DNA of 64,000 nt from Escherichia phage WPEC3: sequence record PV611058. One strand, written 5' to 3'. The notes beneath the pieces are model-generated. The model was not told the origin of the DNA and did not search any database. It saw only the letters and a program-made list of their open reading frames with translations. A program made the translations under genes and the position numbers. Shown here in pieces: positions 1 through 15,580 of the stretch (position 1 is the first letter of the stretch; every line of letters starts with the position of its first letter).

Positions 1-96
1 AGCTCATTTTATGGATTGGGACCAAACTTTGATCAAAATTCCTCAGCATATGCACAATTCGTCAAAGTGGATTTGCCAGGGGCATTATTAAATTAA
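1..96 (+). CDS. RCC1-like repeat protein paralogue, C-terminal fragment (5' end outside window)
   Basis: Open frame from position 1 to TAA at 94-96; C-terminus ...AQFVKVDLPGALLN resembles the C-terminus of the paralogue ending at 2427 (...AVFTKIDLPK). Confidence 0.5.
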   Translation, partial: SSFYGLGPNFDQNSSAYAQFVKVDLPGALLN

Positions 97-106
97 GGAG
101 AGAAAT

Positions 107-1309
107 ATGTTACCTTTTGCGAGGATGGTTAAGTTCGGGAATATTGCACCAGGGCCAGAACCAATAGAGTTCTCAAATGTTTTACAACAACATTATACAA
201 ACTGTATGTATCTACATAGCCCAACTAATACTTTATATGGTTATGGTAGTAATAACTTTTATCAATTTGGTCTTGGGAATTCAGCAGCAGTTGCGTCATT
301 TACAGTACTTGCAACGCGATGTGCAGCCTTTTGGCTTGGTGTTCAAGGTTCATTGATGATTGATTTGGATAATAAAATATACTACACTGGGTCGGTTGGT
401 GCATTTTCTGATTATGGAGATGCAACACCTGTTAATGGTTATTTGAGAACATGGACTGATGTTACTGCTTCATTTAATAAAATTGGTGTTATGGCTAATA
501 TGATCAAGAGTGTATATATAGGTGAAAGTACTAGAATATTATTAACCGATGGTAGAGTAATTGCGTGTGGAAGAAATACCAATGGTGAATGTGGGTCTGG
601 TAATCAAAATTCCATACCTACACTAACAGTTATGACTAATATGGGTGAAGTTACACATATGGCATGTTCATTACAAGGAACGCACTATATTAAATCAAAT
701 AAAAAGGCATGGTTTTGTGGTAAGGATAACTTCGGTGAAAGTGGTTGTGGTGCTAGTTCTATGATATATTTGAACAAATATGTGATGAGTGATGTCGAAC
801 ATATTAGTACTACATACGATGTTACTTGGTGGTTTACTACTGGTGGGCCTGTATATTATAGCGGGGCTAACAGTACTGGACAAGCTGGTAATGGTACGAC
901 TACATCGGTAAATCAGCTAACACCAATTAGGAACACATCGGTCACGGTTGATGTAAGTAAGTACAGTACTTTTATTTGTCCAAGTAATATGGGAAATGCA
1001 TCAATTGGTGCACCTATGGCACAATACGCACCATATGTTAGAAGTAGTGGTGCTAACGGATACGGTCAAGAAGGTAATGGAACTAATACATTAGTTAGGA
1101 CTTGGAATATTTTTAATCTTAATGCAATAAGTGGTGGTTATGACAATGTTCTTATGGCATCTAAAGATTGGAGCAGAACCATAATAATTACTAAAGATTA
1201 TAAATTATATGCATGTGGTGGCTGGAATGGTAATGGTGGTAGATTGCCTGATGGCACTTATAGTATTACTACACTAACATTAATGCCAACGCAGTTATGG
1301 CAACAATAG
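107..1309 (+). CDS. RCC1-like beta-propeller repeat protein (array paralogue 1)
   Basis: 400-aa ORF; N-terminus MLPFARMVKYGN; repeated G-x-N-x-x-G-Q-x-G-x-G signatures (YGYGSNNFYQFGLGN, YSGANSTGQAGNG, SSGANGYGQEGNG) typical of RCC1 repeats; RBS aaggag 8 nt upstream. Confidence 0.8.
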   Translation: MLPFARMVKFGNIAPGPEPIEFSNVLQQHYTNCMYLHSPTNTLYGYGSNNFYQFGLGNSAAVASFTVLATRCAAFWLGVQGSLMIDLDNKIYYTGSVGAFSDYGDATPVNGYLRTWTDVTASFNKIGVMANMIKSVYIGESTRILLTDGRVIACGRNTNGECGSGNQNSIPTLTVMTNMGEVTHMACSLQGTHYIKSNKKAWFCGKDNFGESGCGASSMIYLNKYVMSDVEHISTTYDVTWWFTTGGPVYYSGANSTGQAGNGTTTSVNQLTPIRNTSVTVDVSKYSTFICPSNMGNASIGAPMAQYAPYVRSSGANGYGQEGNGTNTLVRTWNIFNLNAISGGYDNVLMASKDWSRTIIITKDYKLYACGGWNGNGGRLPDGTYSITTLTLMPTQLWQQ

Positions 1310-1317
1310 GAGGAATT

Positions 1318-13701: not shown

Positions 13702-13727
13702 GCCAGTACTATGTACTGGCTTTTCTT
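13702..13727. terminator. Bidirectional intrinsic terminator (gccagtactatgtactggc + T-run) between convergent genes
   Basis: Perfect hairpin flanked by A-rich and T-rich tracts; sits between the plus-strand array gene ending 13695 and the minus-strand ORF ending 13728. Confidence 0.6.
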
Positions 13728-14378
13728 TTACATATTATATAATGTGAATGCTGTCACTTTACCAGTTGTTGTTAGTTCATTATAAAGATACTCCAATATT
13801 CTCGCACACTCTAAGTATATCTCGATATCATCATGAATAAGTGAGTACTGAAATAGCTGTTCTTCAGATAATTTGTATTGACTTCCTTTTAATGAATTGA
13901 GAATATCTTTCACATCATCAAGTACTGGGTAAAGTACGAAATCTTCATCATATTTTGAAGCAATAAATTCAAATCCACCACCATCAGTACTAGATATACC
14001 AATCAGTACTTTATCAATCAAGTTAATGTTTATATAACGGTTGTGATTTGGGTGAATTGAAATCTCAAACATACGAGTACTGTTACAATCAACATCAATA
14101 TACAAATATACATCGTTGAATTTATAAGTTAAGCAACCGTACTCAAGAAAATCAGAGCAAATAATTGATGAGTTTTTTCTCGTCTCTGCGTAATGCATCT
14201 TGATATTCTTTTCACGCATAAGTAATTCGAACTTTGCACTAAACTTGCCACCAGTAAGATAGTTAGTATTAGGACGTTTGTAACTTGCAACTGGTCGGTG
14301 GGATGATGTAAAGTATTTTTTTGTGAATCGTTTCTGTTTAGTGAAATATTCTTGATAGAACTTACTTCTTTTATTCAT
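13728..14378 (-). CDS. Hypothetical protein; member of the dispersed EExxFQ-motif paralogue family
   Basis: 216-aa ORF; C-terminal region ...KLSEEQLFQYSLIHDDIEIY matches a motif shared by >10 ORFs in the window. Confidence 0.5.
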   Translation of the reverse strand: MNKRSKFYQEYFTKQKRFTKKYFTSSHRPVASYKRPNTNYLTGGKFSAKFELLMREKNIKMHYAETRKNSSIICSDFLEYGCLTYKFNDVYLYIDVDCNSTRMFEISIHPNHNRYININLIDKVLIGISSTDGGGFEFIASKYDEDFVLYPVLDDVKDILNSLKGSQYKLSEEQLFQYSLIHDDIEIYLECARILEYLYNELTTTGKVTAFTLYNM

Positions 14379-14455
14379 GAGTACCTCAATTAAATCGCTG
14401 TAAAATTGTACATTATAAAATGATTAAATAAAGTATAACACAAGGAGATTTTATC

Positions 14456-15580
14456 ATGTTACCTTTCGTATTGTTATTTGATTATGGGAACGAAAAACAA
14501 GAAAGTTCTTATGATGTTAGTGTATATGGAAACAATAACTACATTTTAAATAAACAAACTGGAAACCTTTTTGCATCCGGTGCTGCGGCATTCATGGGTG
14601 ATAACACAGTTAAGTATTATATTACCCAAATAGAATCAAATGTTCATAGCTGTGAGATAGGTTTCCTATCATCATGGATAATTAAGAAGGACAAAACTGT
14701 TTTCATTTTAGGAAACAAAAGCAGTATAGGATTAACTGGTTCGACAACATCATGGTTCGAAATTACAAACTTATTTTCTGCTGTTCCTGAAATATGGGAC
14801 AACCTATTTGAATGTAAAGTTCAATTGGGATATAACTGCATACGTGTTATGACACCACTAGGATCAATCTATGCGATTGGTACAAACACTTATGGTGCAT
14901 TGGGTACTGGTACTACATCCTCATCCACTTCGTTCGTTAAAAGTGGTGCTGTGGATGCTGTACGCATGGAATCAACAGAACGTTCAGTGTTCTATCAAAA
15001 CAGTTCTGGACAATGGTTTGGATGTGGTGATAACACATATGGTATACTAGGTCTAGGAACTACCGCTAGTCGTGTAAACTCATACACCGCACCAGTATGG
15101 ACTAATGCAGAAGCTGTTAGCTTCTCTAACCGTGGGATCATATACAGCCTCAATGGTACTCTATACTCATGTGGTGACAAAGTTAATGGTCAGCTAGGGG
15201 ATGGATATACACAAAGCATAGACGCAGCCAGGAGCACACCATACACCATAGGAACCGCATTCCAAATTGGTAAGGCAATAACATCAGCTACACAAGCATC
15301 AGCCAACGTATTCATTGGTAAAGATAATAAGTTCTATGGTACTGGTAGTATTGCTGCTGGTATAAATGGTAGTACTAGTGCTGCATTAAGTAAAGTTACT
15401 GCGTTATCAGCAGCACTACCACCTGACATTACATACAATGATATTATAACATTCAATACTGGGACCGTAACTTTTATTCAAGCAAAAGGACAACTATATT
15501 ATGTTGGTAGAAGAACTTACATAGATAATAGTTCAGACGTTACCACACAGTTCAGTGTAATTGGTGGCTTAGATAATTAA
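14456..15580 (+). CDS. RCC1-like beta-propeller repeat protein (array paralogue 12, transcribed divergently from 13728-14378)
   Basis: 374 aa; N-terminus MLPFVLLFDYGN; CGDKVNGQLGDGYTQS and GTNTYGALGTGTT repeats; leader variant attaaataaagtataacacaaggag. Confidence 0.75.
   Translation: MLPFVLLFDYGNEKQESSYDVSVYGNNNYILNKQTGNLFASGAAAFMGDNTVKYYITQIESNVHSCEIGFLSSWIIKKDKTVFILGNKSSIGLTGSTTSWFEITNLFSAVPEIWDNLFECKVQLGYNCIRVMTPLGSIYAIGTNTYGALGTGTTSSSTSFVKSGAVDAVRMESTERSVFYQNSSGQWFGCGDNTYGILGLGTTASRVNSYTAPVWTNAEAVSFSNRGIIYSLNGTLYSCGDKVNGQLGDGYTQSIDAARSTPYTIGTAFQIGKAITSATQASANVFIGKDNKFYGTGSIAAGINGSTSAALSKVTALSAALPPDITYNDIITFNTGTVTFIQAKGQLYYVGRRTYIDNSSDVTTQFSVIGGLDN

Follow-up and report, generated by a model that had tools for sequence, protein, structure and literature searches.

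The 64,000-nucleotide stretch analysed here (the window) comes from Escherichia phage WPEC3 (sequence record PV611058), and its positions 1-15580 hold a tandem array of 13 plus-strand genes for RCC1-like beta-propeller proteins, headed by a common 12-residue N-terminal peptide (the tag). Megablast placed the window in Asteriusvirus, in the 121Q/PBECO4/phAPEC6 group of ~350-kb jumbo coliphages, rather than among the T4-like phages assumed in an earlier note made from the sequence alone. The diversified array described in that note was recovered in full, including the copy cut by the window edge, the two frameshifted copies and the copy lying past a minus-strand gene. An open reading frame (ORF) list and a six-frame motif scan gave exactly 12 MLPF starts in the window, all on the plus strand within 107-14456 and all conforming to MLPF..(R/L)...(Y/F)GN. 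The features of the array are listed below; the family hidden Markov model (HMM) was built on the sequences of 73 relatives minus their first 15 residues (and is thus tag-less), and cluster numbers refer to protein bodies clustered at an identity of at least 70%.

1-96, plus strand: 3' end of the 13th array gene, cut by the window edge; frame 1 reads to FVKVDLPGALLN and a stop, and the C-terminal end of the family HMM matches it weakly (positions 331-356, E 0.007)
107-1309, plus strand: tagged RCC1-like propeller gene, 400 amino acids, MLPFARMVKFGN (Pfam; ORF and motif scan); orthologue cluster 4, common to Ecwhy_1 and phAPEC6
1318-2427, plus strand: tagged RCC1-like propeller gene, 369 amino acids, MLPFVRLFDYGN (Pfam; ORF and motif scan); abuts the preceding gene with only a ribosome-binding site upstream; cluster 1, the phAPEC6 member of which bears another tag subtype
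2434-2497, plus strand: example of an intergenic cassette, with hairpin GCCAGTACTnnnGTACTGGC, T-run, TTAAATATAGTATAAT, AAAGGAGG and ATG
2498-3667, plus strand: tagged RCC1-like propeller gene, 389 amino acids (Pfam); orthologue of phAPEC6 gp010
3740-4919, plus strand: frameshifted tagged RCC1-like gene, with a 59-amino-acid N-terminal part (3740-3919) and a body in the +1 frame (3843-4919; family HMM E 4e-51); the frameshift is also present in Ecwhy_1 genes 521/522, and is thus inherited and not private
4990-6144, plus strand: tagged RCC1-like propeller gene, 384 amino acids (Pfam; ORF and motif scan)
6223-7413, plus strand: tagged RCC1-like propeller gene, 396 amino acids (Pfam; ORF and motif scan)
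7486-8673, plus strand: tagged RCC1-like propeller gene, 395 amino acids (Pfam; ORF and motif scan)
8726-9877, plus strand: tagged RCC1-like propeller gene, 383 amino acids, the modelled copy (AlphaFold, Foldseek; PHROG 4219, E 1e-102)
9949-11128, plus strand: frameshifted tagged RCC1-like gene, with a 264-amino-acid N-terminal part to 10743 (family HMM E 3e-62) and the last blades in another frame to 11128 (E 6.6e-15); the truncation (…YPLYGVG[AS]Q…) is common to phAPEC6 gp007 and 121Q, and is likewise inherited
11139-12488, plus strand: divergent tagged RCC1-like gene, 449 amino acids, with insertions and no Pfam match (family HMM, AlphaFold)
12559-13695, plus strand: tagged RCC1-like propeller gene, 378 amino acids (Pfam; ORF and motif scan)
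13728-14378, minus strand: embedded gene, 216 amino acids, not a family member (PHROG 34359, unknown function)
14456-15580, plus strand: tagged RCC1-like propeller gene, 374 amino acids, variant tag MLPFVLLFDYGN (Pfam; ORF and motif scan); present in Ecwhy_1 and not in phAPEC6

The array proteins are members of the RCC1-like domain (RLD) seven-bladed beta-propeller superfamily, and Pfam, the family HMM and two AlphaFold models agree on the fold that the earlier note had proposed. Pfam RCC1, RCC1_2 or WD40_RLD (PF00415, PF13540 and PF25390) match 9 of the 10 intact proteins, and the tag-less HMM recovered the divergent product of the gene at 11139 (E 2.9e-19) as well as both halves of both frameshifted genes. 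The product of the gene at 8726 was modelled as a seven-bladed propeller (predicted local distance difference test (pLDDT) 91.3, predicted template modelling score (pTM) 0.88); its Foldseek matches included UVR8 (E 4e-21, template modelling score 0.74-0.79), the RLDs of HERC1/2, RPGR and RCC1, with only 15-17% identity to the last. For the divergent protein encoded at 11139 (pLDDT 62, pTM 0.71), Foldseek again gave UVR8 (E 2e-11) together with HERC and RCC1 propellers. The GxNxxGQLGxG signature from which the fold had been read is degenerate in many blades. Bodies within the array share 23-39% identity or fall below BLASTP detection, and the first 12 codons are 85-90% identical at the DNA level as against 39% for codons 13-24. 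Charged residues are few, and the proteins are close to neutral (net charge −4 to +7, isoelectric point 5.3-9.2). Outside phages, their nearest relatives are RCC1-like proteins of bacteria, found together with PKD, fn3, TIG, Flg_new and T9SS-tail domains; we regard these domains as characteristic of surface-located or secreted proteins.

The array belongs to the Asteriusvirus family PHROG 4219, which is annotated in dozens of relatives, with genes named "regulator of chromosome condensation" or "putative DNA condensation protein"; megablast and tblastn found array matches in 36-59 phage records. Two papers already remark on it, and Buttimer et al. (PMC5259590) reported multi-copy homologues in 121Q (121Q_234-238, 240-242 and 244-248) and PBECO4. 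The array as such is therefore already known, and the novelty suggested for it in the earlier note falls, by that note's own criterion, since related phages have it as a commonly annotated family that is in print. Locus, family and synteny are the same throughout the group, and both the multi-copy nature and the detection in virions have been published. Synteny is kept in Ecwhy_1 and phAPEC6 (gp549-gp010), with single cassettes up to 99% identical. WPEC3 differs in which cassettes it holds and in their order: in no relative is at least 80% of the array covered, and no member of cluster 21 (the gene at 11139) was seen in the other three Asteriusvirus arrays that were compared. The published descriptions of the Asteriusvirus array make no mention of a shared N-terminal peptide or of its occurrence on other folds; the paper on Pectobacterium phage CBB names as paralogues only 536~537 and 549~553, the Sharanji paper has nothing on the RCC1-like family, and a literature text search for the motif (MLPFAR, MLPFPR, MIPFAR and MLPFVR) returned nothing relevant. 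What appears to be new is thus the fold-independent, retained N-terminal tag, no description of which turned up in the searchable literature.

Across 112 proteins, the tag has the form M-[LI]-P-F-x-R-[MIL]-h-x-Y-G-N, in which M1, P3, F4, Y10, G11 and N12 each exceed 4 bits; information content collapses past residue 15, and entropy rises from 0.4-0.5 bits in the tag to 1.6 in the variable linker of ~5-10 residues that follows and 2.2 in the bodies. The pattern MLPF[AV]R[ML][VF][KD]YGN, given in the earlier note for every complete copy, held for 10 of the 12 starts and failed at 107 (KFGN) and 14456 (VLLFDYGN). In the model of the protein encoded at 8726, residues 1-20 have a pLDDT of ~50-64; they form a short helix at 4-10 and sit outside the propeller, which is closed without them. 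The tag is not confined to propellers of this type. In a 361-kb metagenomic relative with a syntenic array (42% identity to the protein encoded at 8726), all 14 of 14 genes start MIPF[AVT][RK]...Y[GA]N, and among their products are a Kelch propeller, a ConA-like protein (Laminin_G_3), a Gly_rich_2 protein and one that matched nothing in Pfam. Pectobacterium phage CBB has nine tagged genes, none of them RCC1-like; phAPEC6 and 121Q each bear a tagged glycine-rich protein, largely unannotated; the tag was also found in Erwinia phage Hallingskeid, Xanthomonas phage XbC2 and Cronobacter phage GAP32, and on mixed folds in IMG/VR jumbo phage and metagenome contigs. After a metagenome scan, 122 non-redundant tagged proteins were collected (78 RCC1-like); the remainder were Kelch, ConA-like or glycine-rich, were small and had no Pfam match, or were RCC1-Kelch double propellers. 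The tagged proteins scanned against Pfam yielded no domain of an enzyme or toxin and none for DNA binding. In each jumbo genome-length contig scanned, all tag matches fell within one contiguous array region of ~13-16 kb. RCC1 proteins of Clostridioides phages lack the tag, their alignment beginning only at residue 13-30.

Two tag subtypes occur in the window and in Ecwhy_1: type A, MLPFARMVKYGN (ARMVKY), at 107, 2498, 7486, 8726, 9949 and 12559, and type V, MLPFVR[ML]FDYGN, at 1318, 3740, 4990, 6223, 11139 and 14456. Only type A is found in phAPEC6 and 121Q, where position 5 can be A, G, T or V. Tagged double propellers of ~670-690 amino acids, RCC1-like followed by Kelch, are encoded by XbC2_591 (359-2425) and at two metagenome loci; a single tag can therefore head more than one module. 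Homologues of the ConA-like GAP32_002 body occur in ~150-kb Vequintavirinae phages, annotated there as virion structural proteins (PBES 02 8995-9645; GAP31 8953-9603 and 10159-10770). These start with another short motif (MEEMLLTGG, MNEMLMLGQ and, in GAP31_106, MQEMLLGGL), which may be an analogous lineage-specific tag.

Tagged proteins were associated with virions in three published proteomes. Virion mass spectrometry of phAPEC6 (Table 1 of that study) identified gp003, 005, 006, 007, 009, 010, 549 and 551, all of which are tagged; 8 of the 10 annotated tagged genes are thus among 62 virion proteins from a total of 551 (p = 6e-7). Among them, gp005, gp007 and gp010 are orthologues of the WPEC3 genes at 8726, 9949 and 2498, respectively. 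In CBB (Table 4 of that study), CBB_536, 537, 548, 549, 551, 552 and 553 were detected with 2-8 peptides and coverage up to 51%, that is, 7 of 9 tagged genes among 55 virion proteins of 554 (p = 2e-6). The RCC1-like GAP32_001 was likewise identified by virion mass spectrometry (PMC5259590), and GAP32_002 is annotated as a virion structural protein. Two of the CBB virion peptides, LFEYANVIIPPNYK (CBB_536 residues 7-20) and YANVIVEYATK (CBB_548 residues 10-20), reach into the tag (residues 7-12 and 10-12), which shows that it is kept in the particle. Moreover, phAPEC6 gp007 (30 kDa), which lacks the last blades, was still detected in the virion, which fits recruitment through the N-terminus. The earlier note had allowed for a different targeting signal on a host-interaction scaffold, an idea that the analysis supports.

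The phAPEC6 record (MK817115) is itself mis-annotated in this region. Tagged genes at 2434-3543, 6063-7253 and 7325-8059 are unannotated or mis-started, the start of gp002 is misplaced upstream and gp004 is a fragment of the glycine-rich gene; the ends of the record share a ~2.4-kb repeat (gp550 and gp551 = gp001). The published count of 'eleven' and the database used for the mass-spectrometry search are therefore incomplete.

Most array genes in WPEC3 are preceded by an exactly repeated cassette of a terminator-like hairpin, a promoter-like motif and a ribosome-binding site. Plus-strand terminator-like hairpins start at 2434, 3675, 4924, 6150, 7421, 8662, 9884, 12495, 13699 and 15585, and the array region has 24 terminator-like hairpins as against 6.5 ± 2.7 expected. 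The motif AAATATAGTATAA occurs exactly eight times (2467, 3709, 4960, 6192, 7456, 8696, 9918 and 12528), once with one mismatch (14426) and nowhere else in the 64 kb. The TTAAATATAGTATAAT region contains a TATAAT hexamer, and by eye no acceptable −35 element was seen at 16-18 nucleotides. In comparison with the regions upstream of phAPEC6 head and tail genes, the array motif is not of the TATAAATA late type, and it does not seem to be a complete sigma-70 promoter. Repeated stem-loop and promoter-like units between genes of a plastic region are also what characterizes the promoter-early stem-loop (PeSL) cassettes of T4-type hyperplastic regions, which likewise offer homology for shuffling; the array differs from these in that its motif TTAAATATAGTATAAT appears to have no usable −35 element and in that the repeat runs into the coding region as a conserved peptide.

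Comparison of four Asteriusvirus arrays revealed gain, loss and rearrangement of cassettes between close relatives, with shared cassettes mostly 88-99% identical. The orders of body clusters were as follows (short, product below 300 amino acids).

WPEC3 window: 4, 1, 7, 8 (short), 9, 2, 10, 3, 5 (short), 21, 11, 12
Ecwhy_1: 6, 22, 23, 4, 1, 8 (short), 9, 2, 10, 3, 11, 12
phAPEC6: 6, 24, 13, 1, 4, 25, 2, 14 (short), 3, 15, 5 (short), 16, 7
121Q: 6, 13, 1, 26, 2, 14 (short), 27, 3, 15 (short), 5 (short), 16

In total, 84 clusters were found among 113 proteins, and two "condensation regulators" were among the proteins of fEgEco12 most divergent from Ecwhy_1 (PMC13070987). One body cluster can carry different tag subtypes in different phages, indicating exchange of 5' ends.

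The conservation of the tag has two sources. In the four Asteriusvirus genomes its codons are near-invariant (TTA and CCT in 48 of 48 genes, GGG in 40 of 48), even though GGG makes up only 11% of glycine codons in the gene bodies; the exact 5' repeats and invariant codons indicate homogenization of the 5' block. In other lineages P3, R6, Y10, G11 and N12 are kept with varied codons (CCT/CCA/CCG, GGG/GGT/GGA and AGA/AGG/CGA), and operon genes with spacers of 9-13 nucleotides and no promoter cassette are still tagged. This synonymous variation and the retention of the tag in operons show that the peptide itself is under selection, and conservation acts at the protein level as well as at the DNA level.

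On balance, we favour the reading that the tag is a retained, non-cleaved virion-docking peptide on interchangeable binding modules that are probably displayed externally. The array would be a cassette bank of ligand-binding modules, all RCC1-like propellers in WPEC3, to which relatives add Kelch propellers, ConA-like lectin domains and glycine-rich domains. The shared peptide would dock at one common site on the virion and recruit whichever module is fused to it, and the modules on display would serve as adhesins, in a mixed set that evolves fast. Each array gene or gene pair of Asteriusvirus may form its own transcription unit, and its terminator, promoter-like motif, ribosome-binding site and tag, a block that is near-identical from one cassette to the next, would supply the homology by which cassettes are gained, lost and shuffled. 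In phAPEC6, 121Q and CBB, hair-like fibres and densities at the hexamer centres have been described with no proteins assigned to them, and these are candidate sites on the particle exterior. Display on the outside is favoured by these unassigned structures together with the lectin/adhesin-type folds of the modules scanned against Pfam, the surface-type bacterial relatives and the near-neutral charge. A literature search for high-resolution structures of Asteriusvirus or Mimasvirus that assign tagged proteins found none. The wider proposition that Rak2-like jumbo phages (Asteriusvirus, Mimasvirus and unclassified relatives) use the 12-residue tag as a plug to mount shuffled lectin-like modules (RCC1, Kelch, ConA-like, glycine-rich) outside, on hair-like fibres or capsomer centres, as a combinatorial adhesin display, is tentative, and we hold it with clearly less confidence.

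Several observations weigh against this docking model. What connects the tag with incorporation is a correlation. SSB, RecA, ThyA and topoisomerase, which are co-purifying proteins, appear in the phAPEC6 virion list as well, and the RCC1-like proteins in it have low peptide counts (1-5). The array motif is unlike the TATAAATA late promoters that precede the head and tail genes of phAPEC6, and the conservation of the tag inside Asteriusvirus is partly homogenization, not selection. With respect to external display, 121Q and phAPEC6 have an unassigned inner body that could house the tagged proteins, and GAP32 has tagged virion proteins, yet no hairs have been reported for it (PMC5259590).

The inner body leads to the main rival account, in which the tagged proteins are internal capsid cargo: like the T4 capsid-targeting sequence or the peptide of an encapsulin cargo, the tag would load modules into the prohead, where they would make up or accompany the inner body, and they would be ejected with the DNA and neutralize host factors in the manner of BLIP-II, an RCC1-like propeller inhibiting a host enzyme. 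Wagemans et al. suggested RCC1-like proteins for the inner body of such phages, and WPEC3 has a T4-type prohead protease and scaffold. A short N-terminal peptide on unrelated bodies, a hyperplastic locus and virion association would also fit. This is the pattern of the T4 internal proteins, from work of the Repoila/Black type. Several features nevertheless make this account less likely than docking on the outside. As the earlier note had observed, the N-terminus lacks the L-x-E protease site: [LIV]xE is not conserved, occurring in only 30 of 109 tagged proteins and at scattered positions, whereas the major capsid protein does have LTE|S at residue 43, which fits its reported processing from 42 to 37 kDa. 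Together with the tag residues in the CBB virion peptides, this rules out a cleaved T4-type capsid-targeting sequence (CTS). Furthermore, the proteins are near-neutral rather than basic, the modules scanned against Pfam have lectin/adhesin-type all-beta folds and include no enzymes, and folded 40-kDa propellers would presumably need to unfold to pass the tail tube.

The docking model could also be mistaken if the tagged proteins are intracellular and merely co-purify, with the tag serving a phage chaperone, the Clp protease or localization within the cell. The evident non-structural proteins and the low RCC1-like peptide counts in the phAPEC6 list, as well as an upstream motif that is not of the canonical late type, are compatible with this. 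We consider it improbable, given detection in three independent virion proteomes from CsCl (caesium chloride)-purified particles of different genera, the enrichments of 8/10 and 7/9 and the coverage of 41-51% at best in CBB.

A third possibility is that the identity of the tags is a DNA-level by-product, in which a duplicated or gene-converted PeSL-like block drags along the first 36 nucleotides and the peptide has no function. Near-invariant tag codons in the window and three other Asteriusvirus genomes, exact repeats of the upstream hairpin and motif, and the different subtypes on one body cluster all point in this direction. Other lineages vary the codons and keep the amino acids, operon genes without a promoter cassette keep the tag, and conservation ends exactly at residue 12 with P3, F4, Y10, G11 and N12 invariant. 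Synonymous-codon variation rules out DNA-level conservation as the sole cause, and a functionless peptide is in our view very improbable.

That the RCC1-like proteins organize or condense the packaged genome, as their annotation states, is hardly credible: the proposal derives from the database name and a suggestion in PMC7247149 only, the match is to the generic RCC1-like domain with UVR8 and HERC as best hits, the proteins are near-neutral with few charged residues, and lectin-type folds share the tag and the locus. Bacteria are not known to have Ran. A chromatin or Ran function is thus unsupported, "DNA condensation protein" is a misnomer, and charge and fold argue against such a role. Least credible of all is the earlier note's suggestion of a structural closing ('velcro') strand, since, although many propellers, RCC1 included, close their ring with an N-terminal strand, the 12-mer also heads Kelch proteins and ConA-like and glycine-rich proteins of 200-270 amino acids, and the modelled ring closes without residues 1-20, which rules this role out.

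We also recorded features around the tagged genes and elsewhere in the window. The embedded minus-strand gene (13728-14378) has no match in Pfam or to the RCC1-like family HMM; it is kept in Asteriusvirus as 121Q_233 and phAPEC6 gp011c, and gp011c was not among the proteins detected in the phAPEC6 virion. At ~15600, exactly at the switch from the plus-strand array to minus-strand genes, GC skew flips from ~+0.2 to ~−0.1. Adjoining the array are seven abutting minus-strand genes (15617-18056) for proteins of 104-123 amino acids, each with ~3 transmembrane-like segments and a basic C-terminus; their mutual paralogy is barely detectable. Arrays of similarly small minus-strand genes flank the tagged array in Ecwhy_1 (530-536), Hallingskeid, CBB (539-546, annotated as membrane proteins) and L002, and conserved synteny may therefore connect this array with the tagged one. 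A lone plus-strand gene for 385 amino acids (46788-47945) lies among minus-strand genes with a late-promoter-like element, AATAAATA, upstream. In position, size and strand it is the putative counterpart of phAPEC6 gp077, for which coverage in the virion is good (10 peptides, 38%); as a docking partner it was set aside, with no Pfam match and no lead. Six minus-strand tRNA genes (53520-58477) comprise Thr, Asn, Met and three of Ser type, one of them with an unusual ACT anticodon call.

In several genera of jumbo phages, over 100 proteins annotated as "hypothetical", "DNA condensation", "kelch-like" or "structural" are brought together by the tag, which accounts for their concentration at a single locus and goes along with detection in virions in the three published proteomes. 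For Asteriusvirus, an array of RCC1-like genes is nothing unusual and is misnamed in databases, and a spreading annotation can be corrected; nothing supports DNA condensation. If the tag is a docking signal, it would supply candidate components for the unassigned hairs, decorations or inner body, a simple handle for finding the docking partner and a short tag with which to load or display foreign proteins on jumbo phages, as the T4 CTS does for T4. If the modules are displayed externally as adhesins, the specificity of host or environment binding would evolve by cassette exchange at a single locus.

Among known systems, the peptides of encapsulin cargo and the decoration protein Hoc provide a functional analogy, as a short terminal peptide or small element docks diverse or adhesin-like modules on an HK97-fold shell, and density without an assignment lies at the hexamer centres of phAPEC6. 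Neither has a sequence or structural relationship to the tag; encapsulin peptides are usually C-terminal with enzymatic cargo, and Hoc binds by a folded domain. Multi-receptor-binding systems (CBA120 TSP1-4, G7C gp63.1/gp66 and the K64-1/RaK2 depolymerase sets) similarly combine conserved N-terminal attachment with variable parts for host binding at the C-terminus, and are likewise encoded in tandem and shuffled between relatives. The anchors of receptor-binding proteins are folded domains of ~100-300 residues on trimeric fibres or spikes. The tagged proteins have, in place of such an anchor, 12 residues and a variable linker on globular, probably monomeric propeller or lectin modules. The T4 CTS (IPI, IPII, IPIII and Alt) is likewise an N-terminal peptide of ~10-12 residues on unrelated, rapidly diversifying virion proteins, encoded at a plastic locus with conserved upstream signals. 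It differs in that the tag of the array has no L/I-x-E site and is retained in the virion protein, and in that the tagged proteins are near-neutral all-beta modules of 22-50 kDa, whereas T4 internal proteins are small and basic.

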